Shown: positions 33,346 through 43,493, counted from the stretch's first letter. The stretch is 64,000 bases of DNA from Elusimicrobiaceae bacterium (GCA_045644515.1 JAZRHA010000008.1:305-64304), one strand, 5' to 3'. The notes: a model not told the origin generated them from the letters alone. Numbers and translations are program-made.

Positions 33346-34389
33346 TTATTTCACCTTCGGCAAAAGTTCAAGCAATATAAAATAAACCAACATGCAAGCA
33401 ACACCTATCGGTAAAGCTTGTTTTGCCCACTCCTTACTTTTAATTTTAAATTTTGAAGCACAAATAATGTTGGGGATATTCCCCGGTATTAAGAAACCGC
33501 CTGAAATTATTAAACCCATAAGCAAAAATTCAATTTGGGTATTGCTCATTGTCGGTACAATTTCAGCGGCGGCAAGCGTTGCATTATCCAAGATTGCGGA
33601 AATTGAGTTTGCCCAGTATAAAGCCGCCAAAGGCAGTTTCATAATACTGATTTCAGCCAAAGGCGTAAGCCCGTGGCCGAAGAAAACCAAAGCCATAATA
33701 AACAAATATACTTTTGCGGCGCGGATTAAAATATCTTTTGAACTATCAATTTCAACATGTTGTTGGCTTTTAATCTGCTCATCTTTTGTGCGCCCTGCCA
33801 TATAAGCAAAAAATGCAACACCGGGAATAATCAAATACCAAAGCAAATGAAGCAAATAAAAGAAACCTGCATTGTGCGGTTCGCCGGAAAGTTTACTGAC
33901 AACTATTGTGGAAAGCGGTTCACCGATAGGCGTTAAAATTGCCCCAAGGCCTATCGCAAAACAGCCCATAACTATAACGTGTATCGTATCGCGCCTTGTT
34001 AAACGCAAAGTAGCGGCAATTTCGCAAAGTATTAAAGCGGCGACTATGGCTGTTATTACGCTTGAAAAAAGCCCCAAAACACCGACGAGTAAAATAATAG
34101 TTTTTTTAAGCCCGATTTTAAGTTCAATATGTTCAATAAGATGTGCTATATTTAATCTAAATCTTCTAAAGAGCAAGCCGATAATTAAAACCGCTAAAGA
34201 GATTTTTATAGGTTCTACAAGTGCCATACCCACCAACGGCCAGGACCAAGCCCCTATAGCAGTAACAGCAATAATACCCAGGACAAATAAAAAAGATTCC
34301 AATTGCTGTTCTACGGCGTGGACCGTAAAAGGCAAAAAGAGCGCCAGCAAAATTACTAAGGTTAAAATTATTATTACGAGCGTACTCAT
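33346..34389 (-). CDS. Polytopic membrane protein, putative cation transporter (DUF1646-like)
   Basis: About 10 TM helices, 347 aa, translationally coupled to mgtC. The family assignment is from memory only. Confidence 0.4.
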   Translation of the reverse strand: MSTLVIIILTLVILLALFLPFTVHAVEQQLESFLFVLGIIAVTAIGAWSWPLVGMALVEPIKISLAVLIIGLLFRRFRLNIAHLIEHIELKIGLKKTIILLVGVLGLFSSVITAIVAALILCEIAATLRLTRRDTIHVIVMGCFAIGLGAILTPIGEPLSTIVVSKLSGEPHNAGFFYLLHLLWYLIIPGVAFFAYMAGRTKDEQIKSQQHVEIDSSKDILIRAAKVYLFIMALVFFGHGLTPLAEISIMKLPLAALYWANSISAILDNATLAAAEIVPTMSNTQIEFLLMGLIISGGFLIPGNIPNIICASKFKIKSKEWAKQALPIGVACMLVYFILLELLPKVK

Positions 34390-34427
34390 AAAACTCCCCT
34401 TTTTATATTATACTAAAAAACTACTAT

Positions 34428-34622
34428 CATGACGAACTATATTAATTAGTGTGCATGTTCTTGCAAATTTAAGTGCTTTTTAATTTTTCAACTCCTAGAG
34501 TACCGAGATGTCGCTTCGCTCCACGTTCTTCTTGGTACTCGTCGTCGTAGTAAAAATCAAAAATCATCTTAAATTTGCTGCGTCGCACAAAATGCACTCG
34601 TACGCTTTGGTTCTAAACTCTA
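34428..34622 (-). repeat. Long-palindrome element, copy A (minus orientation; palindrome 34463-34578)
   Basis: Its reverse complement aligns along its length with copy C (39961-40160). Arms are gcaaatttaag/cttaaatttgc. Core is gagtacc-N27-ggtactc. Confidence 0.85.
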
Positions 34623-34683
34623 GAGTTTTTATGAACTTTCCTGAAAAATAAAAGTAGAAATAAAAGCCTTATTATAAAAATTT

Positions 34684-34712
34684 AACCCCCGTTCAATTTT
34701 TAAACGGGGGTT
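34684..34712 (-). terminator. Intrinsic terminator hairpin downstream of the 34734-35678 gene
   Basis: 10-bp stem aacccccgtt/aaacgggggtt with a 9-nt loop, flanked by T/A runs on both strands. Confidence 0.6.
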
Positions 34713-34733
34713 TTGTGTTCTTAAAATACTCTT

Positions 34734-35678
34734 TTATTTTGCTTCCGTTCTTAAACGTTCGGCAAAATTGTGAATATAATCTGCCCTTTCTTCGGTAGTT
34801 AAATTTTGCCAATATCTTGTTTGGGTATAAAGGCGTGCCGACATATTTTCAACATTTGGGTTTTTGGAAGTATAGTATTCAATATCCACAGCATCATATA
34901 AGATTTGCGCGCAATCTTTGCTCTTGTGATAAAATAATTCAAAATCGCTCACACCTTTTTTATCAAAAGAAATAAGTGTTTGGAAAGGACTGTCAAGAAA
35001 CTTATTTTTTGTTTCATAAGGTGTTAAATTGGGACTAAAATAAGGTACGGAAGGGTTTGTAAATAATAAAAATGCTAGCAAGACTGCTACCCCAACCCCT
35101 AAACTTGCATATAAAACGCCCTTTCCAGTATATCCAGAAAGTAATAGGCAAAACATTGTCATGCTCCCTATAAACATGGAACCCACAGCAGAACCCGCAT
35201 AATAACCAAATTTCTCGTCTTTATATGTGTTTTCCGCGTTTATGCCCTCTTGTATTTGATCAAATAAAACCGTATAAAAAGCATCGCGCAACATTTCTTC
35301 TTTGGTTTTATTACCATAATATTCAGGATCTTCGTTTATTCTCTTTACTGCTTCTTCTTTTAAGAAATTTACATAATCTTCACGTTCTTTTAGAAAGGTT
35401 TCATTTTTTTCAAATTCTTCCAAATTCTTTTGATTATTTTCAACGGAAAGTTGATAGCGTTTCTTTATAACCTCAATATCCGGTATACCTTCATAAAGAG
35501 GTTTTTTAGGCTTGATAATTTCTGACATTGAAATAGATGCGGCAATTTCTTTTTTAAGTTCATTTAATTGTGCTACATCTAAATCAGCAACAACATCTGC
35601 TGCCTGCAAAACAGGGGTAGTAGTAAATAGTATAATTACTGCCATTGTTAAACTGATTATTTTGTTTAGTATTTTCAT
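34734..35678 (-). CDS. Hypothetical secreted/membrane protein (signal peptide, coiled-coil-like region, 2 TM helices)
   Basis: 314-aa ORF with SD AAGGAGA. I recognise no family. Flanked by repeat elements on both sides. Confidence 0.6.
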   Translation of the reverse strand: MKILNKIISLTMAVIILFTTTPVLQAADVVADLDVAQLNELKKEIAASISMSEIIKPKKPLYEGIPDIEVIKKRYQLSVENNQKNLEEFEKNETFLKEREDYVNFLKEEAVKRINEDPEYYGNKTKEEMLRDAFYTVLFDQIQEGINAENTYKDEKFGYYAGSAVGSMFIGSMTMFCLLLSGYTGKGVLYASLGVGVAVLLAFLLFTNPSVPYFSPNLTPYETKNKFLDSPFQTLISFDKKGVSDFELFYHKSKDCAQILYDAVDIEYYTSKNPNVENMSARLYTQTRYWQNLTTEERADYIHNFAERLRTEAK

Positions 35679-35782
35679 AAATTCTCCTTGCGATATTTTA
35701 TATTATATATATTTTTAAAAAACAACAAAAGGGCCATTAGGCCTATTAAAAAGTACCCCAAAAACCTATTTAAAGGCCAAAC

Positions 35783-35868
35783 CATGTACCCAAACCCGGC
35801 AAGTATTTTTGAGGAAATTTTAGTTTTATAACCCCACCCCTTTACCCCTCAAACAAAGGGGCGGGGAA
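35783..35868. repeat. Arm module (35783-35826) plus truncated REP-like unit (35830-35868)
   Basis: ggccaaaccatgtacccaaacccggcaagtatttttgaggaaatttt recurs at 36673-36722 and 41878-41930. It is followed by aaccccacccctttacccctcaaacaaaggggcggggaa. Confidence 0.8.
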
Positions 35869-35889
35869 TATAAGGAAATAATTTTAAAG

Positions 35890-36070
35890 TTCAAAACCGT
35901 AGCGTGCGAGAATGGTTTCGCATCGCGTAGCAAATTTAAGATGATTTTTTATTTTCTCCTTGACGACGAATACCCAGAAGTATAGGAGCGTAGCGATTTT
36001 CGGTATTCTAGGAAAGGGAAAATAAAAAAGGGCTTAAATTTGCAAGCGCGTTATATGCGTTTGTGGACAT
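35890..36070 (+). repeat. Long-palindrome element, copy B (palindrome 35930-36043; core hairpin 35968-36008)
   Basis: gcaaatttaag-atgattttttattttctcc-ttgacgac-gaatacc-N27-ggtattc-tagg-aaagggaaaataaaaaag-gg-cttaaatttgc. Confidence 0.85.
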
Positions 36071-36109
36071 AATGCGGGGACACGACACGTCAAAACAAAT
36101 TCCCTATTT

Positions 36110-36118
36110 TGCTATAAT
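36110..36118 (+). promoter_or_regulatory. Extended -10 promoter of smpB (leaderless configuration)
   Basis: TGcTATAAT, then 6 nt (atatat), then ATG at 36125. There is no room for an SD. Confidence 0.55.
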
Positions 36119-36124
36119 ATATAT

Positions 36125-36595
36125 ATGAGTAGAAAAAAAGGTATAGAAGTAATCGCTACCAATCGCCAAGCCATGCACGAATATTTTATTTTAGATACTT
36201 TTGAGGCAGGCCTTGTCTTGCTTGGAGCGGAAATTAAATCAATACGCAACAAAGAATGTTCTTTGAGGGCGGCCTTCGTGCGTGTAGCTGACGGGGAAGC
36301 ACAAATACTTAATTTAAATATTAAGCCTTATGCTTTTAACACTCATACAGCATTAGATCCTACCAGAACACGCAAATTGCTTTTAAACCGCCGGGAAATA
36401 AACAAACTTGCAGCCGCAAGTGAAGTTAAGGGGCAAACAATAGTTCCGCTTGAACTTTATATCAAAGACGGTTGGGCAAAAGTTAAAATTGCTTTGGCAA
36501 AAGGTAAACACTTGTACGACAAACGCAAAACATTAAAAGATAAAGCCGTTGCACGTGATATGGAACGCAATTTCAAAAATAAATTTAAGTTGTAA
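36125..36595 (+). CDS. smpB: SsrA(tmRNA)-binding protein SmpB
   Basis: IATNRQAMHEYFILDTFEAGLVLLGAEIKS... and C-terminal basic tail; typical SmpB. Confidence 0.95.
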   Translation: MSRKKGIEVIATNRQAMHEYFILDTFEAGLVLLGAEIKSIRNKECSLRAAFVRVADGEAQILNLNIKPYAFNTHTALDPTRTRKLLLNRREINKLAAASEVKGQTIVPLELYIKDGWAKVKIALAKGKHLYDKRKTLKDKAVARDMERNFKNKFKL

Positions 36596-36601
36596 ATGTA
36601 T

Positions 36602-36648
36602 AACCCCACCCCTAACCCCTCCACCTTTGCAAGCAAAGGGGAGAGGAA
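36602..36648. repeat. REP-like unit 6 nt downstream of the smpB stop
   Basis: aaccccacccctaacccctccacctttgcaagcaaaggggagaggaa; same family as 16646-16693. Confidence 0.85.
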
Positions 36649-36672
36649 TTACAGGAAGTATTTTTTATTAAA

Positions 36673-36822
36673 GCCAACCTGTGCATATAACCCCGGCAAG
36701 TATTTTTGAGGAAATTTTGATTTTTTCTGCGACGACTAGTACCGCGAAGTATAGGAGCGTAAGCGACGTATCGGTACTTTAGGAGCTGAAAAATCAAAAT
36801 TTACCAAAAAGAATTAGCCGGC
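36673..36822 (+). repeat. Long-palindrome element, copy D (palindrome 36712-36802, alternative arms)
   Basis: Perfect 14-bp arms aaattttgattttt/aaaaatcaaaattt around the core tagtacc-N-ggtactt. The core loop gaagtataggagcgtaagcga is conserved with copies B and E. Confidence 0.85.
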
Positions 36823-36910
36823 ACAAAATGTAAATTGCAAATTTCCTATCTTGAACAATAATAAGTTGTAATTTGATATACTATATATATACATCAATCA
36901 AGGGGATTTT

Positions 36911-39460
36911 ATGAAAATTCATTCATTTAAAGTTACACCGGATTTGCCGGATAATATGAAATTTTTGGAAGAACTTTCCAACAATATGTGGTTTGCGTGG
37001 AATTGGGACGCAATCAATTTATTTGTCAAAATAGACGAAAAACTTTGGGAACAAAGTTTACGTATGCCAAAATGGCTTATGGCAACGGTTTCACAAAAAC
37101 GCTTGGAAGAACTTAGCAAAGATAAAGATTTCATTGCACAACTTAATTATGTAGAATCTCTTTACAGAAATTACCAAAAAGAACAAAATACTTGGTTCAA
37201 TAAAATTAAAGGCCAAGGGAAAGACAACTTTTTAACGGCATACTTTTCAATGGAATACGGTATCGGCGAAGGTTTACCTATTTATTCCGGCGGTCTTGGT
37301 ATGCTTTCAGGCGACCATATTAAAAGTTCAAGCGACCTCGGGTTACCTTTAATCGGTGTAGGTTTGTTTTATCAAAAAGGTTATGTAAAACAAGTTTTAA
37401 ATAAAGACGGCTGGCAAGGCGAACAATACCCGGAAAATGACTGGGCACACATGTCCGTTGAACCTATATTAAAAGCAGATGGTAATCATTTGACTGTAGA
37501 TATTCCACTCGGCCGCGAAACAATTAAAGCAATGATTTGGCGCGTGCCTGTCGGCCGCACTTCCTTATTTTTACTTGATACTAATTTACCGGAAAACCCA
37601 CCCCAACATAGAACTATTACCGAACAACTTTACGGCGGTGATAGGGAAAACAGAATTAAGCAGGAAATTGTCCTCGGCGTAGGTGGTGTAAAAGCATTAA
37701 AAGCACTAGGTTTAAAACCGACAGTTTACCATATTAATGAAGGGCACTCCGCATTTTTGCTTTGCGAACGCATTATTGAAATTATGCAAGAACGCAAAAT
37801 TTCCTTTGACGAAGCACGTGAAATTGTTTGGGCAACTTCAGTTTTTACCACTCACACACCTGTTATTGCAGGTAATGAACATTTTGATTTTAATTTGGTC
37901 AAAAAATTTATGGAACCTTATGTAATGCAACTCGGCATCGGCTGGGACAGATTTTTAGATTACGGTAAAGAAACACCGGAATCCCCCATGTTTTGCATGA
38001 CTGTTTTTGCTTTAAAACTTTCCGCTTACTTAAACGGTGTTGCAAAATTGCACGGTAAAGTTTCCCGCGAAATGTGGCATAAAGTTTGGCCTAATTTAAA
38101 TGTAAACGAAGTGCCGATAACAAGCATAACAAACGGTGTACACTCGGCAAGTTGGGTAAGCCATGAACATAATGATTTATACAAAAAATATTTGGGTAAT
38201 ACTACAAACCCGTTAGATAATTTTGACCAAAATGTTTGGAATAAAGCATATGATATTCCTGCCGATGAACTTTGGAATACACATAATATACGTAAAGACA
38301 AACTCATTAAACATATCCGCGCAAAAGCAGTGCGCCAAGCACACCGCATGGCAGCAAGTTTGCAAACAGTAAAGATTGCGGAAAATGTTTTGGAAGAAGG
38401 TGTTTTGACTATCGGTTTTGCACGCCGTTTTGCCACTTATAAACGTGCGACATTGCTTTTTAAAGATCCTGAAAGATTAGCAAAAATCGTTAATAATCCA
38501 AACAGACCGGTTCAGTTTGTTTTCGCCGGTAAAGCACACCCGGCAGACAGTGCAGGTAAAGAATTTATCAAAAAAATATTTACCTATATGCTTGACCCTA
38601 GATTTAAAGGTAAAATCGTTTTTGCCGAAGATTATAACATGAACCTTGCCCGTTATATGGTTCAAGGTGTTGATGTTTGGTTAAATAACCCGATTAGGCC
38701 TATGGAAGCATCCGGCACAAGCGGTATGAAAGCCGCTTTAAACGGTGCTTTGGCCTTATCAATCCTTGACGGATGGTGGGATGAAGTCGGCCCATGTGAT
38801 TTCAGTTGGTCAATCACCGGTTCTGATACTTATAAAGACGATAATGAACGCGATGAAGTGGAAAGCCAAGCACTTTATAACTTGCTTGAACAGGAAGTTA
38901 TCCCGACATATTATGATAGAGATGCCGACGGCTTACCGCAAAAATGGATCAAAAAGATGAAAGATTCCATTTCAAAAATAGTACCTTTCTTTAATACACA
39001 CCGCATGGTGCAAGAATATTATGATAAATTCTACACCAAAGCCCATTATTACGGAAGTATGTTAAACACCACAGGCCGCACCGCAGAAGTTGCCGCATGG
39101 CGCAAAAAAATTGCAGACAACTGGCCGCAAGTATCAATTACAGATACAACAGGCCAAATTGACGGTGAAGTATTAGTCGGCCAAAAGATAAAAATTAAGG
39201 CTGATGTTACTTTAGGTTCTTTAAAACCGCAAGATGTTGTGGTACAACTACAAGTCGGTACACGCGGTATGGGCGGTGCTTTTGAAAGTTCAAAAGATAT
39301 GGCAATGAATTTTGTAAAACAGGAAAACGGCATATATAAATATGAACTTGAATTAAAGCTTGAAACAAGCGGTCGTCAAGATTATGTTTTAAGAATTTTG
39401 CCTTTCAACGCAAATGTACCCCATCCGTTTACTCCGCTTTTTGTACGTTGGGAAATTTAG
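36911..39460 (+). CDS. glgP: Alpha-glucan (glycogen/maltodextrin) phosphorylase, GT35, archaeal/Thermotoga-type
   Basis: 849 aa. YFSMEYGI...GGLGMLSGDH, EASGTSGMKAALNG (PLP-Lys region). SD AAGGGGA. Confidence 0.9.
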   Translation: MKIHSFKVTPDLPDNMKFLEELSNNMWFAWNWDAINLFVKIDEKLWEQSLRMPKWLMATVSQKRLEELSKDKDFIAQLNYVESLYRNYQKEQNTWFNKIKGQGKDNFLTAYFSMEYGIGEGLPIYSGGLGMLSGDHIKSSSDLGLPLIGVGLFYQKGYVKQVLNKDGWQGEQYPENDWAHMSVEPILKADGNHLTVDIPLGRETIKAMIWRVPVGRTSLFLLDTNLPENPPQHRTITEQLYGGDRENRIKQEIVLGVGGVKALKALGLKPTVYHINEGHSAFLLCERIIEIMQERKISFDEAREIVWATSVFTTHTPVIAGNEHFDFNLVKKFMEPYVMQLGIGWDRFLDYGKETPESPMFCMTVFALKLSAYLNGVAKLHGKVSREMWHKVWPNLNVNEVPITSITNGVHSASWVSHEHNDLYKKYLGNTTNPLDNFDQNVWNKAYDIPADELWNTHNIRKDKLIKHIRAKAVRQAHRMAASLQTVKIAENVLEEGVLTIGFARRFATYKRATLLFKDPERLAKIVNNPNRPVQFVFAGKAHPADSAGKEFIKKIFTYMLDPRFKGKIVFAEDYNMNLARYMVQGVDVWLNNPIRPMEASGTSGMKAALNGALALSILDGWWDEVGPCDFSWSITGSDTYKDDNERDEVESQALYNLLEQEVIPTYYDRDADGLPQKWIKKMKDSISKIVPFFNTHRMVQEYYDKFYTKAHYYGSMLNTTGRTAEVAAWRKKIADNWPQVSITDTTGQIDGEVLVGQKIKIKADVTLGSLKPQDVVVQLQVGTRGMGGAFESSKDMAMNFVKQENGIYKYELELKLETSGRQDYVLRILPFNANVPHPFTPLFVRWEI

Positions 39461-39481
39461 TAATTTACAGGAAGGTGCGTT

Positions 39482-39931
39482 TTGAATATTGTTCTTATTA
39501 ACCCGGAAATTCCGTTTAATACGGGCAATGTCGGCCGCACTTGCGTGGCAACAAATACTCATTTATTCCTTGTCGGCAAACTCGGATTTAAGATTTCCGA
39601 CAAGGAAATACGCCGCAGCGGCCTTGATTATTGGCCCAAATTAAAATATACCGTTATACCTACTTGCGATGAATTTTTTGACAGTTTACCTAAAAATGCA
39701 CGCTTGTTTTTCTTCTCCACAAAAGGCAAAAAATGTTTTTGGGATGCTAAATTTGAAAAAGATGATTATTTAATTTTCGGTTCGGAATTTTGCGGGTTTC
39801 CGCGTGATTTTTACACAAAGTATGCCGACAGATTATACACTATCCCAATGCCGGGGGAAGTACGTTCCCTAAACCTTTCTACCTCAGCCGCGATTTGTTT
39901 ATATGAAGCCTTAAGACAAACAAGGAAATAA
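39482..39931 (+). CDS. trmL: tRNA (cytidine/uridine-2'-O)-methyltransferase TrmL (SpoU/TrmH family)
   Basis: (M)NIVLINPEIPFNTGNVGRTC...LIFGSE..G...LNLSTSAAICLYEALRQ. TTG start with SD AGGAAGG 7 nt upstream. Confidence 0.85.
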   Translation: MNIVLINPEIPFNTGNVGRTCVATNTHLFLVGKLGFKISDKEIRRSGLDYWPKLKYTVIPTCDEFFDSLPKNARLFFFSTKGKKCFWDAKFEKDDYLIFGSEFCGFPRDFYTKYADRLYTIPMPGEVRSLNLSTSAAICLYEALRQTRK

Positions 39932-39960
39932 TCAATAAAAATAAAGTAAAATATTTGTAA

Positions 39961-40160
39961 GTGCACGGGATTTTAAAACCAAAGCGTATGGGAATGATTT
40001 TGTGCGACGCAGCAAATTTAAGATGATTTTTTATTTTTCTTTGACGACGTGTACCAAGAAGTAAAACGAACGGAGTGAGTTTGCGGTACTCTAGAAAAAG
40101 AAAAATAAAAAAGGGTTTAAATTTGCAAGAACATGCACACTATTTAACGTAATTCGTCAT
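39961..40160 (+). repeat. Long-palindrome element, copy C (palindrome 40012-40126)
   Basis: Closest relative of copy A, in the opposite orientation. Core gtgtacc-N-ggtactc. Confidence 0.85.
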
Positions 40161-40175
40161 AACGAATAAAACATT

Positions 40176-41366
40176 ATGAACCCAAAAGTTATTTTATTGA
40201 TTCTTTTTTTAATAAACCTGTTTAATTACATTGACAGGCAGGTGCTTTTCGCCGTCTTTCCGTTACTTGCAAAAGATTTAAATTTAAATGATGCGCAACT
40301 TGGTTTACTCGGTTCAGTTTTTATGATTGTATACACTTTAACTGCACCGGTTATCGCATATTTTGCAGACCGCTCACCAAGGCAAATTTGGGTTTCCGTT
40401 TGTGCGGCTTTGTGGAGCGGTGCAACCGCGTTTACTGGTATGGCAAAAAACTTTTTTCATATTGCAATTGCTCGTAGTTTTATAGGTGTGGGTGAGGCCG
40501 GGTTTACAAGTGTTTCCCCCTCCCTTACGGCGGAAGGTTTTAGTAAGGAAGTACGCGCACGCATACTTGCAATTTTGGGGCTTGCCTTGCCGCTTGGCAG
40601 CGCGCTTGGATATTTGCTGGGCGGCTTAATCGGCCAACATTACGGATGGCGCATGGCATTTTATATTTTAGCTGTTCCGGGTTTTTTACTCGCTTTTTGG
40701 GCCTTGTTTTATATTAAAGATAAACGCAAAACGCAAGACAGTAAAAAAATAAAAATCTCAAATTACTTACAATTTTTTAAAAGCAAAAGTTTTGTTTATT
40801 TATGTTTAGCGGAGGCTATGGCAACTTTTACTTTGGGCGGCCTTGCGGCGTGGATGCCCACATATTTCCACCGCTACTTCGGCTTTAGTATAGCAGAGGC
40901 AGGCACAAAATTCGGTTTAATGATAATTATTGCAGGGCTTATCGGCACTTTGGGCGGCGGTGTACTTTCGGACTTTTTGATTAAGAAAACAAAACGCGCT
41001 TATTTTTATACTACTTTGCTTGGTTATATGATGGCTTTGCCGCTTGGGCTTTTTGCACTTTTGTGCGAGAGCCAAACTATATCCCTTATTTGTTTTGGTG
41101 CGGCAATGAGTTTTGTATTCTTGCAAACAGGTGCTTTAAATGCGGCAATTATCAGTTTGACTTCACTTGAAATAAGGTCTATGGCATTTGCCTTCAATAT
41201 TTTTATTATTCACGCTTTGGGGGATGCAATTTCCCCAATGACTATCGGTAAAATTTCGCAAGCATTTGATTTACAACTTGCGGTTTTTATAGCCATAGTA
41301 TTTTTAATACCTGCCATTGTGTTTTGCTATTTTTCCGCGCGCACTTTTAAAGGGCAAGAACTTTAA
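40176..41366 (+). CDS. MFS transporter
   Basis: 12 TM helices and an MFS loop motif (ADRSPRQIW). Substrate unknown. Confidence 0.8.
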   Translation: MNPKVILLILFLINLFNYIDRQVLFAVFPLLAKDLNLNDAQLGLLGSVFMIVYTLTAPVIAYFADRSPRQIWVSVCAALWSGATAFTGMAKNFFHIAIARSFIGVGEAGFTSVSPSLTAEGFSKEVRARILAILGLALPLGSALGYLLGGLIGQHYGWRMAFYILAVPGFLLAFWALFYIKDKRKTQDSKKIKISNYLQFFKSKSFVYLCLAEAMATFTLGGLAAWMPTYFHRYFGFSIAEAGTKFGLMIIIAGLIGTLGGGVLSDFLIKKTKRAYFYTTLLGYMMALPLGLFALLCESQTISLICFGAAMSFVFLQTGALNAAIISLTSLEIRSMAFAFNIFIIHALGDAISPMTIGKISQAFDLQLAVFIAIVFLIPAIVFCYFSARTFKGQEL

Positions 41367-41372
41367 AAAATA

Positions 41373-41381
41373 TGTTAAAAT
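41373..41381 (+). promoter_or_regulatory. Extended -10 promoter of the DtxR-like regulator (leaderless configuration)
   Basis: TGtTAAAAT, then 6 nt, then ATG at 41388. Confidence 0.45.
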
Positions 41382-41387
41382 TGTTTT

Positions 41388-41750
41388 ATGGGTGTTACGG
41401 AATCTAAAGAAAATTATTTGGAAATCATACACATTTTGGCCGCCAAGCAAAAAGAGGTGCATGCCGTTGATATCGCAAATTACCTCGGTTTTGCCAGGGC
41501 AAGCGTGAGTATTGCTTTAAAAACACTTAAGGACGAAAAATATATTGCGATAGACGATAAACTGCACATCACCCTAACCCCAAAAGGCAAAGCCGTTGCA
41601 AAAAAAGTTTACGACAAGCACAAAACACTTTCCACCTGGTTTATGTTTATGGGTGTGGACGAGAAGACTGCACTTAAGGATGCTTGCAAGATTGAGCATA
41701 TAATATCGGAAAAAACTTTCAAAGCAATTAAGAGGTTTCTCAAGAAGTAG
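41388..41750 (+). CDS. DtxR/MntR-family metal-dependent transcriptional regulator (short form)
   Basis: ESKENYLEIIHIL...VHAVDIANYLGFARASVSIALKTLKDEKYI is a winged-helix region typical of DtxR/MntR. Confidence 0.75.
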   Translation: MGVTESKENYLEIIHILAAKQKEVHAVDIANYLGFARASVSIALKTLKDEKYIAIDDKLHITLTPKGKAVAKKVYDKHKTLSTWFMFMGVDEKTALKDACKIEHIISEKTFKAIKRFLKK

Positions 41751-41770
41751 GAAGTCTGCAATTTGAGTTT

Positions 41771-42028
41771 TTTGCTAGCGGCGTCTTTCTGGTAAATTTT
41801 GATTTTTACTGCGATTTTACAAGAGCGTAAACCCGTAGCGTGTGAGAATAATATCGCGCCGCGCAAAATTAAATAAAGCCAAACCGTGTGCATAAGCCTA
41901 GCAAGTATTTTGGAGATAATTTAAATCTTTTCTTTGACGACGAATACCCAGAAGTATAGGAGCGGAGCGACTTTCGGTATTCTAGGAAAAGAAAAATTTA
42001 AATTAGCCCAAAAGACGCCGCTAGCAAA
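41771..42028 (+). mobile_element. MITE-like composite element, copy E, bounded by perfect 18-bp terminal inverted repeats
   Basis: tttgctagcggcgtcttt (41771-41788) and aaagacgccgctagcaaa (42011-42028). The interior holds arm modules shared with copy D and 35783-35826, plus the core palindrome 41917-42005. No coding capacity. Confidence 0.7.
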
Positions 42029-42081
42029 TAATGAAAACTGCAAATCATTCCATTCGTAAAGACACAATGCGTAAAATAAGA

Positions 42082-42087
42082 TATAAT
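42082..42087 (+). promoter_or_regulatory. -10 box upstream of dnaB
   Basis: TATAAT, then 8 nt, then ATG at 42096. No SD in between. Confidence 0.4.
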
Positions 42088-42095
42088 ATATAAGT

Positions 42096-43493
42096 ATGAT
42101 AAACGAAAAATTACCCCCACAAGCATTAGACGCCGAAATGGCACTCCTCGGATCCATGATGATTGAGCAAGATGCACTTGAACGCGCTGTCGGTATAGTC
42201 AGTGCAGAACATTTCTATAAAACCGCACATCAAAAAATCTTTACGGCGATGAAAACCCTCTCCGATAAAGACCAGGCGGTTGACCTTATTACAGTAACCG
42301 AAGAACTTAAACGCGAAGGCTTTTTGGCCGAAATCGGCGGGGAAAGGTATTTGGCGGAACTTATGTCTAAGGTTTCCACTGCAGCACATGTGGAACATTA
42401 TGCCAAAATCGTTTATGATACGGCACTTGTCAGGGAACTTATAAAAATTTCCACTTCCACCGTTGAAAGTTGCTATAAAGATACGGACCAGGAACCAAGC
42501 AATTTAATTGACGAGGCGCAGAGCAAACTTTTCACTTTAAACCAAAAGCAGGTTAAACAGGGGCTTGTTTCCACAAAAGACATGTCCCAAGAAGCGATGG
42601 ACCAAATTGAAAAACTTATCGTCAATAAAGACCCCATTAAAGGTGTGCCGACAGGTTTTACGGAGTTTGATACAATGACAGGCGGCCTAAGGAAAGGCGA
42701 CCTTATTATACTCGCAGCCCGCCCTTCTCAAGGAAAAACCGCAATGGCATTAAATATTATTCAAAATGCACTTGATAAAAATTTCCCGGTTGCATTATTT
42801 TCTTTAGAAATGGGGCGCTTTCAAATTTACCAAAGAATGGTTTGCACCGCCGCGCAAGTTAGTTTACATAATGTAAGTACGGGCGTTTTCCAAAAATCAA
42901 GGTGGCGTGAACTTTCAACAAAAATTCAAAAACTCGGAGAACAACCGCTTTTTATTGACGATACCCCGGCCGTAACTATAACAGAAATACGCATGCGCGC
43001 AAGACGCTTAGCCCGCGAACTGCAAAAAGCCGGCAAAGAACTTGGCCTTATTGTAATTGACTATATCGGCCTTATCCGCAGCGGCAAGGCAAAAGTGGAA
43101 TCCCGCCAACAGGAAGTTTCAGAAATTTCAAGAATGTTAAAAGAACTTGCAAGAACTATGAATGTCCCTGTTCTTGCCCTTTCCCAACTTAACAGAAATA
43201 CCGAAAAGGGCCGCGCGGATAACCGCCCTCAACTTTCGGACTTAAGGGAATCAGGCTCTATTGAACAAGATGCTGACGTCGTCGCCTTAATACACCGCGA
43301 AGGTTACTATAAGTGGAACGATGAAACTTTAAGAAATAAAGCAAACCTTATCTTAGCAAAACAACGCAATGGCCCGGTGGGTACTATTGACCTTAATTGG
43401 TATAGCGAATATACTTTGTTTACCAATCCGGCCCTTGTAAGTGATGAAGAAGCCGCCGTAGCTATGGCAGCCCCGGGCGATATACCGCTATGA
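42096..43493 (+). CDS. dnaB: Replicative DNA helicase DnaB
   Basis: LPPQALDAEMALLGSMM, Walker A ARPSQGKTA, Walker B LIVIDYIGL, QLSDLRESGSIEQDADV. Confidence 0.95.
   Translation: MINEKLPPQALDAEMALLGSMMIEQDALERAVGIVSAEHFYKTAHQKIFTAMKTLSDKDQAVDLITVTEELKREGFLAEIGGERYLAELMSKVSTAAHVEHYAKIVYDTALVRELIKISTSTVESCYKDTDQEPSNLIDEAQSKLFTLNQKQVKQGLVSTKDMSQEAMDQIEKLIVNKDPIKGVPTGFTEFDTMTGGLRKGDLIILAARPSQGKTAMALNIIQNALDKNFPVALFSLEMGRFQIYQRMVCTAAQVSLHNVSTGVFQKSRWRELSTKIQKLGEQPLFIDDTPAVTITEIRMRARRLARELQKAGKELGLIVIDYIGLIRSGKAKVESRQQEVSEISRMLKELARTMNVPVLALSQLNRNTEKGRADNRPQLSDLRESGSIEQDADVVALIHREGYYKWNDETLRNKANLILAKQRNGPVGTIDLNWYSEYTLFTNPALVSDEEAAVAMAAPGDIPL

Follow-up and report, generated by a model that had tools for sequence, protein, structure and literature searches.

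A family of structured, non-coding interspersed repeats was identified in a stretch of 64,000 nucleotides from an Elusimicrobiaceae bacterium (GCA_045644515.1, JAZRHA010000008.1:305-64304; the whole stretch is called the window below). Each unit is 190-220 nt long, somewhat longer than the spans given in a preliminary description, and consists of an A/T-rich hairpin around an asymmetric core of 52 nt, with asymmetric 5′ and 3′ extensions. On balance, the family is probably an undescribed structured, non-coding, non-autonomous interspersed repeat of Elusimicrobiaceae that behaves as a small mobile or recombining element. We observed common membership of the copies, a core structure supported by covariation, strand specificity, taxonomic restriction, gain, loss and nesting of copies and a partial orientation bias. 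A role at the RNA level and a role as a signal in single-stranded DNA (ssDNA) are weighed below; these readings and that of a mobile repeat are not mutually exclusive.

The preliminary description had located five copies, and all five were recovered. The core pattern GACGACNNNTACCNNGAAG has 5 matches in the window (34528-34546 on the minus strand; 35962, 36731, 40043 and 41936 on the plus strand), with 0.05 expected by chance. A covariance model built from the core (R1), which was run on the window and on the loci described next, gave exactly 5 matches in the 64-kb window at 80-90 bits, followed by a runner-up at 15 bits. On the opposite strand of a true copy, R1 scored about 9 bits. An alignment of all five revealed a common centre flanked by complementary A/T-rich arms.

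At the species level, one genome per GTDB species was scanned with the pattern GACGACNNNTACCNNGAAG-N16-28-CGGTANTNTAG. The census figures below refer to the matches listed, which comprise at least 99 loci (cited by L numbers) from ten assemblies, the window genome not being among them. All listed loci come from rumen or gut metagenome-assembled genomes (MAGs) labelled Elusimicrobiaceae, Elusimicrobium or Elusimicrobia. The nearest relative of the window genome among the matches listed is SGB_3118, with 83-91% nucleotide identity in shared genes. Together with the window, the ten MAGs hold at least 112 pattern matches and at least 71 distinct cores. In the listed loci R1 found at least 116 copies, every one at 65 bits or more and nothing weaker at E≤0.01, so the family is sharply bounded and contains few decayed cores. 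This brings the total to at least 121 cores in about 0.8 Mb. Nine of the 116 R1 copies depart from the search pattern and give an unbiased view of variation; in these the GACGAC, GAAG and TAGGA boxes vary, rarely.

In a comparison with Rfam, which had been proposed beforehand, only a tRNA passed the gathering thresholds in the window and no family matched the repeat; a permissive scan of 34380-42100 returned matches at chance level only. Viral contigs, plasmids and phages gave no match to the repeat, which disfavours a phage or plasmid origin as well as a single-strand origin (sso). Elusimicrobiaceae, which inhabit gut and rumen, have been little studied and are known mainly through MAGs; full-text literature searches found no account of repeats in Elusimicrobia, interspersed repeats included.

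A covarying, strand-specific core

The units share one architecture. Arms of 30-45 bp, A/T-rich with a T-rich 5′ side and an A-rich 3′ side, enclose a 4-bp helix of free sequence (CTTT/AAAG, CTGC/GCAG, ATCT/AGAT, CCTT/AAGG, CAAG/CTTG, TTAC/GTAA and others), in which UA, GC, CG, AU and UG pairs occur across the census. At the foot of a 7-bp helix lies an internal loop with 5′ GACGAC opposite 3′ TAGGA, both near-invariant. The 7-bp helix NNNTACC/GGTANNN is followed by a 5-nt bulge NNGAA and by a two-part short helix that covaries (GTG/CAT, AAC/GTT, AGT/ACT, AAT/ATT, GGG/CCT, AG/CT). The apex reads GA-[G/A]CGNAG[C/T]-GA; after it come the matching 3′ arm and then a different 3′ extension. The core consensus quoted earlier fits copies B and E of the window, but copies A, C and D differ from it in the apical part. 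No reading frame conserved across copies was noticed in the alignments.

Covariation was assessed on 66 distinct cores, with controls in which the partners were slid by 1-3 columns, plus 500 shuffles. Standard pairs were observed in 92% of cells, compared to 44-57% in the slid controls, and 151 cells showed double changes, compared to 5-40. The covariation score was 0.302 against at most 0.14 in the slid controls, and 0 of the 500 shuffles reached the observed values. The preliminary description had proposed the 7-bp stem and a G:C/A:T exchange at its position 3, both of which the census bears out (GC 49, AU 14, GU 2, other 1). It had, however, counted this as one compensated pair with modest support, which understates the evidence; the covariation check on more copies that it suggested thus came out clearly positive. 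Even the otherwise invariant part of the 7-bp helix shows a rare double change, TATC/GATA, in one copy.

The mismatches distinguish the two strands. By our tally of the pair table, G·U accounts for about 74 cells of the core helices and A·C for about 8. The G·U pairs sit at positions that are constant within whole subtypes; A·C occurs in isolated single cases. The pairing constraint therefore acts on the GACGAC strand only, which excludes a symmetric double-stranded or cruciform role of the core and leaves ssDNA or RNA of that sense. In the long arms, 188 A·C and 91 G·T cells were counted, but most of these come from internal loops and from a few mismatches common to an arm type, so that the counts are uninformative as to the strand. 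Each full copy in the window forms a hairpin of 120-135 nt with a folding z of -3.9 to -6.8, and for all five the opposite strand folds less well. The sequence of the GACGAC/TAGGA loop fits a kink-turn (3-nt bulge, G·A, A·G, C:G), although we make no kink-turn claim.

The apical "loop" GAGCGNAGCGA can be read as a helix with two tandem G·A mismatches, two base pairs and a C:G-closed GNA triloop. Its pair 37:44 covaries (G:C 53, A:U 9, G:U 3). The apex is GCGNAGC in 78 of the 121 copies and ACGNAGT in 21, and copy D carries a four-base version, GCGTAAGC. By exact match at the predicted hairpin tip, the apex belongs to the mini-hairpin DNA motif GCGNAGC/GCGNNAGC. This motif is markedly more stable as DNA than as RNA and occurs at the primase site and origin of phage G4, at the single-strand initiation site ssiA of RSF1010 and in the hairpin promoter of the phage N4 virion RNA polymerase (PMC13037366). 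The GCGNAGC apex and the strand-specific G·T pairs fit an ssDNA form at least as well as RNA.

Assuming that the core acts as ssDNA, the repeat could be a signal of the kind used by repetitive extragenic palindromes (REPs) with their associated tyrosine transposases (RAYTs) or by IS200/IS605, or else a priming or promoter hairpin similar to ssi and sso sites. An HUH tyrosine enzyme would then bind and cleave the core, or else a primase or RNA polymerase would make use of it, and the unpaired boxes would act as REP tags. We consider this unlikely, even though the apex is the motif found at the G4 origin, RSF1010 ssiA and the N4 promoter, folding is strand-specific and the conserved unpaired boxes adjoin the stem as they do in tagged REPs (PMC3733652). 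GTAG or CGTC tags arranged as in REPs are absent, a 52-nt core inside 30-45-bp arms is unlike a REP of 20-40 nt, and plasmid or phage relatives are lacking among the sequences searched. Further points on both sides come from the ends, flanks and orientation of the elements.

Arm exchange, nesting and turnover

Around the one core, four sets of arms were found: type I (GCAAATTTAAG...), type II (CCGGCAAGTATTTTTGAGGAAATTTTGA...), type III (CTAGCAAGTATTTTGGAGATAATTTAAA...) and type IV (CGCGCAGTAGATTTAATGGAATTTTCAA...). The three arm types recognised initially are thus real, and the fourth occurs in relatives. Core subtypes are mixed among the arm types, and 11 of the 109 classified copies are chimeras with left and right arms of different types. 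A 5′ X-module (AAACCGTAGCGYRCGAG...) and a long 3′ extension (...CATAATGCGGAACGTTAACACGTAAAA) characterise types I and IV; types II and III begin with ATTAAATAAAGCCAAACCGTGYGCA... and end with ...AAAACTGCAAATTTCCTATTT. The true ends of the elements are not inverted repeats of each other (consensus 5′ ATTAAATAAAGCCAAACCGTG... versus 3′ ...CTGCAAATTTCCTATTT), and the type I ends differ again. Such asymmetric ends, together with the lack of a terminal inverted repeat or a regular target duplication, are as in HUH-mobilised elements and favour the ssDNA signal. At the junction of arm and 4-bp helix, five copies carry a palindrome of 14-16 nt (GGGTAATTCTACCC / CCGGGTAGAATTACCC), which lies in the 5′ arm only in L004, in the 3′ arm only in L003, L044 and L071 and in both arms in L068. 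Ahead of type I copies there is very often a type II left arm. At least nine of these arms cross the 4-bp helix and end at or just past a GACGAC box, and therefore elements nest or recombine at the core boundary.

Nesting can be followed at smpB, where the window was compared with four metagenome contigs (L100-L103) whose SmpB is 92-96% identical to that of the window. An exact look-up of the window's SmpB protein gave no record. Upstream of smpB, a plain type II element is present in L101 and L102. In the window, the same type II left arm and right-terminal motif occur, while a REP-like unit and the type I copy B replace the type II centre. Copy B (35890-36096, plus strand; core match 35953-36022, 84.5 bits) is thus nested in an older type II shell. 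Of this shell, a solo type II 5′ extension with left arm (GGCCAAACC...CCCGGCAAGTATTTTTGAGGAAATTTTAGTTTT) remains at 35767-35812 on the plus strand, as aligned with L101 and L102, and the right-terminal motif AAATTCCCTATTT remains at 36097-36109 (plus strand), directly upstream of the smpB -10 box TGCTATAAT. At the same site, L100 and L103 retain footprints of about 34 nt only, which join arm fragments.

Downstream of smpB, the 10-bp sequence TAAGTTGTAA is directly followed by TTTGCTATACT, the glgP promoter, in L100-L103. In the window, the first TAAGTTGTAA (36586-36595, plus strand), which includes the smpB stop codon, is followed by 266 extra bases (36596-36861), and then by a second TAAGTTGTAA at the right edge (36862-36871, plus strand). 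This block, found only in the window, consists of a REP-like unit (36596 to about 36665) and copy D (36667-36861, plus strand), a type II element with a core match at 36722-36793 (80 bits). The copy D block is a clean insertion flanked by a 10-bp repeat and is absent in four close relatives. The closest of these, L100, lacks a core at the A, B and D sites and has none at all up to 2.5 kb from smpB; its D site is a clean empty site. The elements at the smpB loci (A, B and D) are hence dispensable. Whether it acts in DNA or in RNA, single loci can do without the element, which is no housekeeping regulator.

The REP-like unit is a second, G+C-rich repeat (TATAACCCCACCCC...GGGGCGGGGAAT...), found in the window at 35813-35880 and 36596-36665. 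It acts like a small insertion in its own right and is found next to the palindromic elements or within them. Upstream of smpB, L101 has one and L102 has not, and a 9-nt near-repeat ATGTAA(A/T)AG flanks it.

The remaining window copies are A, C and E. Copy A (34430-34622, minus strand; core match 34484-34555, 90.3 bits) has type I arms GCAAATTTAAG / CTTAAATTTGC and a 5′ X-module. Copy C (39972-40159, plus strand; core match 40034-40105, 85.8 bits) also has type I arms and shows the apical variant AAAC-GAACGGAGTGA-GTTT. Copy E (41870-42054, plus strand; core match 41927-41996, 86.3 bits) has type III arms TAATTTAAAT / ATTTAAATTA; an extra 5′ X-module in type I style (AAACCCGTAGCGTGTGAGAATAATATCGCGCCGCGCA, 41827-41872, plus strand) is fused upstream of it. 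Further upstream, at 41757-41815 on the minus strand, lies a reversed right-arm remnant complementary to the right arm and 3′ extension of E, and L041 has a minus-strand element at the orthologous place.

Between species, filled sites were observed opposite empty or reduced ones (L004 versus L043, L030 versus L094, L058 and L097 versus L061). One orthologous site carries an inverted element (L058 versus L097), orthologous spacers hold different subtypes (L001 versus L091, L039 versus L078, L050 versus L084), and L087 is a core-less derivative. Insertion adds elements, nesting rearranges them and deletion across the palindrome removes them.

In a census of flanking direct repeats, the lengths were those of the shuffled-pair background except at D (10 bp) and L012 (20 bp). 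In L012, a 20-nt exact direct repeat, CCCCTCTTGAAAAGCAGCCC (about 533-552 and 776-795), lies on both sides of a type III element. This repeat is part of a longer, diverged duplication of a promoter region and far exceeds the usual length of a target duplication. Flanking duplications such as those at D and L012 are not produced by HUH insertion and thus count against the ssDNA signal. So does the finding that no Y1/HUH gene was seen in about 0.8 Mb of flanks, a search limited to the flanks and not made genome-wide.

Several of our results weigh against a mobile element with a recognised core. A classic cut-and-paste or replicative DDE mechanism is unsupported, since direct repeats outside D and L012 do not exceed chance. 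Just one clean de novo insertion is documented, and this is a composite with a REP-like unit, while several of the "empty" sites are deletion footprints instead of naive targets. No partner protein was found in the element flanks, where the multi-copy open reading frames (ORFs) in 0.75 Mb of loci were type IV pilin-like only; between separated arm motifs there was no transposase, the ORFs there being housekeeping genes. In nearest-neighbour DNA models, which include no bonuses for mini-hairpins or tandem G·A mismatches, folding of the core alone was unremarkable (z = 0.2 to -1.7 for the five GACGAC-strand cores) and did not differ between the two core strands. Finally, the same core subtypes are shared by species whose genes are just 72-77% identical, a pattern that may reflect purifying selection at the host level no less than continued mobility.

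Many copies were found at the very end of a MAG contig or no more than about 100 nt from it (e.g. L008, L016, L027, L049, L066, L075), which suggests that the repeat breaks short-read assemblies of Elusimicrobiaceae genomes. The family thus offers an explanation for fragmented MAG contigs and can be used as a marker for strain typing and assembly breaks.

Position and orientation relative to genes

Nearly all copies are intergenic, only 2 of 112 lying within a crude ORF call. With genes taken as ORFs of at least 60 aa and tRNAs, 45 copies in spacers between tandem genes are co-oriented with the genes and 14 anti-oriented; a further 26 copies lie between divergent and 16 between convergent genes. 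The two best-sampled genomes gave tandem counts of 22 versus 7. Clustering of orthologous sites by flank similarity left 15 versus 5. Since the flanks contain other repeats, too many sites were merged (one cluster of 69), and this count is a conservative lower bound. The bias in orientation, at about 3:1, is thus genuine but not absolute. The initial claim that all copies are co-oriented with the downstream gene therefore holds as a tendency and not as a rule, and for copy B, which lies between divergent genes, co-orientation is automatic and uninformative.

The 3′ end of the element tends to adjoin the next gene, with a median of 108 nt from the core to the co-oriented start, and in 18 of the 26 divergent spacers the element is closer to the co-oriented gene. 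A distance of 25-95 nt to the start codon had been proposed for the window copies, yet copy C ends about 16 nt from it. Strong -10 boxes, often of the TGnTATAAT type, were observed 6-35 nt past the element end. Because these boxes sit downstream of the elements, the elements are upstream of promoters and are not 5′ untranslated regions (UTRs). The variation of 6-35 nt also rules out that the element supplies a -35 box at fixed spacing. The right-end motif TTCCTAT was considered as a general motif of promoter regions, but it is not enriched in the window.

The orientation bias brings in a cis-acting role in RNA, which we regard as possible, if rather unlikely. Transcripts of the upstream gene would extend through the unit, whose hairpin would serve as a 3′-UTR or intercistronic stabiliser, as an RNase III or RNase E site or as an insulator. 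An RNA-binding protein would attach to the core, and mobility would come second; ERIC and Correia elements reportedly work in this way. In 45 of the 59 tandem contexts it is the sense strand that folds, G·U is tolerated on the folding strand only, and RNA folds are strong, the more so on the GACGAC strand. Of 41 co-oriented copies, only 9 are separated from the upstream stop codon by a recognisable intrinsic terminator, so that most of the 41 would be read through and co-transcribed. On the other hand, copy A and L001 lie behind canonical terminators, about a quarter of the copies in tandem contexts are antisense, and the core-free A, B and D sites of L100 imply that no locus depends on the element. 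No Rfam family matches, and the C(GNA)G triloop with tandem G·A mismatches is typical of DNA mini-hairpins, not of GNRA or UNCG RNA loops (PMC13037366).

The terminator upstream of copy A (34712-34684, minus strand) has a hairpin AACCCCCGTT...AACGGGGGTT with T-runs on both sides, lies between a 314-aa gene and A and is the sole strong terminator-like site in the scanned region 34300-42200. Downstream of copy A, a promoter-like TCGTCA-17-TATAAT was found at 34435-34407 (minus strand).

Neighbouring copies within one 8-kb locus point in the same direction in 9 loci and in opposite directions in 7, by our tally, and in the window the orientation of the elements follows the local genes. These mixed orientations argue against replication direction as the determinant, and the 7 of 16 loci with opposite-facing neighbours thus add to the case for an RNA element. 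They are unexpected if the lagging-strand template set the orientation, as might be assumed for an ssDNA signal.

The structure is strongly conserved, covarying and strand-specific and the copies are intergenic, as would suit small RNA genes that are transcribed independently, each from its own promoter to its own terminator. We regard such genes as very improbable. There is no conserved promoter inside the element or at its 5′ border and no U-tract terminator at its 3′ border, the 5′ and 3′ extensions differ between arm types, and copies are gained, lost, nested and truncated.

The neighbouring genes named initially (DUF1646, smpB, glgP, MFS and dnaB) agree with Pfam, which identifies DUF1646, SmpB, a glycogen-phosphorylase-like protein, a SpoU methylase, an MFS transporter, a DtxR-type repressor and DnaB. 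Genes of the window are on the minus strand from 0.8 to 35.7 kb and on the plus strand from 36.1 to 50.6 kb, with the switch at 35679-36124. All five copies lie within 8 kb of this switch. A replication origin at the switch (35.7-36.1 kb) was considered, but the GC skew just follows gene direction; no origin is callable, and an origin thus does not account for the clustering of the copies. For smpB and dnaB, TATAAT lies 6-8 nt before the ATG and there is no Shine-Dalgarno sequence (36113-36127 and 42082-42098), so that their mRNAs look leaderless, whereas normal ribosome-binding sites precede glgP (GGGGA) and the DUF1646 gene (GGGGAG). In the census, type IV pilin-like genes (N-terminal GFTLIELLVVV) account for 34 of 100 neighbours 5′ of elements and 2 of 110 neighbours 3′ of them, compared to about 8% of locus genes.

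Proposed mechanism and comparison with known systems

The reading of a small mobile or recombining element suggests the following mechanism. The GACGAC strand of each unit folds into a long hairpin, whose arms need only pair and form an interchangeable chassis. A putative protein acting in trans would recognise the core in the form of a folded single strand, either DNA exposed in replication or transcription or read-through RNA. Recognition of the core, and not of the ends, may drive spread and homogenisation. Copies land and persist in intergenic spacers a short way upstream of promoters, and those whose folding strand is the sense strand of the neighbours survive or insert about three times as often. 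The strongest version of this idea, a new kind of mobile repeat that is recognised via its centre and not its ends, with the ssDNA-folded core as the substrate of an enzyme encoded by the host or the element (HUH-type nuclease, primase or polymerase), appears rather doubtful to us. It would explain arm swapping, nesting at the GACGAC box and strand specificity. If the core is an ssDNA recognition site, REP-like tagged hairpins, mini-hairpin motifs and MITE-like spread would be joined in one element; if the repeat acts in RNA, one more phylum would be added in which such repeats shape the fate of mRNA. In either case the family is a model for palindromic repeats that keep their structure while exchanging their sequence.

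The family falls among the bacterial interspersed palindromic repeats and is distinct from classic miniature inverted-repeat transposable elements (MITEs), REPs, attC sites and every Rfam family. Integron attC sites have the boxes R″/L″...L′/R′, read RYYYAAC...GTTRRRY and flank gene cassettes next to intI. The repeat shows no GTTRRRY at the arm ends, and its neighbours are the housekeeping genes smpB, glgP and dnaB.

The preliminary description had assigned the copies to a modular MITE family similar to ERIC, BOX and Correia elements. This assignment stands insofar as the family is a mosaic palindromic repeat with swappable arms, chimeras, nested and truncated copies, gain and loss; strict MITE membership does not stand. 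Like MITEs, the repeat is small, non-coding and multi-copy, but its inverted arms are internal and not terminal, there is no target-site duplication of fixed or regular length and there is no transposase in about 0.8 Mb of flanks. With the Correia elements (CREE/NEMIS) and bacterial MITEs in general, it shares long inverted repeats that fold into hairpins, a position beside promoters and, in one insertion (D), a flanking direct repeat. It differs from them in its asymmetric ends, in the lack of a cognate insertion sequence (IS) in the flanks and in a conservation that peaks in the centre instead of at the ends.

ERIC elements, also known as intergenic repeat units (IRU), are imperfect palindromes of about 127 bp hosted by Enterobacteriaceae and Vibrionaceae. 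They are reported to have orientation-dependent effects on flanking mRNAs (cited in PMC2229807 and PMC3733652). Our repeat resembles them as a non-coding, intergenic imperfect palindrome of 100-200 nt with a best-conserved centre, in spacers that are probably transcribed. It belongs to a different phylum, however, and its asymmetric core folds on one strand and is combined with at least four unrelated arm sets, without a TA duplication; the resemblance is architectural only.

REPs and bacterial interspersed mosaic elements (BIMEs) carry GTAG or CGTC tags and are mobilised by RAYTs, while the CGTC REPs have no known transposase (PMC3733652). As in these elements, a stem with unpaired conserved boxes forms a strand-specific hairpin, copies are intergenic and often downstream of genes, and mosaic clusters with other repeats occur. 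In contrast to the REP, a 20-40-nt palindrome with an 8-9-bp stem, a 4-5-nt loop and an unpaired tag, the repeat has a 52-nt core with an elaborate apical domain in long A/T arms, its boxes are GACGAC and TAGGA, and no RAYT was seen in the flanks. The minus strand of the core reads 5′-CTAG-stem...stem-GTCGTC-3′. This resembles REP tags but has the arrangement of neither REP super-family, and is therefore judged from its sequence to be a resemblance and not membership.

With BOX elements of Streptococcus pneumoniae (boxA-boxB-boxC), the repeat shares modular, interchangeable sub-elements, a predicted stable RNA structure and an intergenic position; it has paired arms around one fixed core instead of tandem boxB repeats and is unrelated in sequence. 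With the mini-hairpin DNA motifs it shares an apex of GCGNAGC or GCGNNAGC with a C:G-closed GNA loop. The known motifs are single functional sites on phage or plasmid ssDNA, whereas the repeat is chromosomal, was sampled in many copies per MAG and is not linked to a replicon origin. It is a clean new family in a neglected phylum, and its architecture, conserved at the centre, is unusual, as is the mini-hairpin apex.

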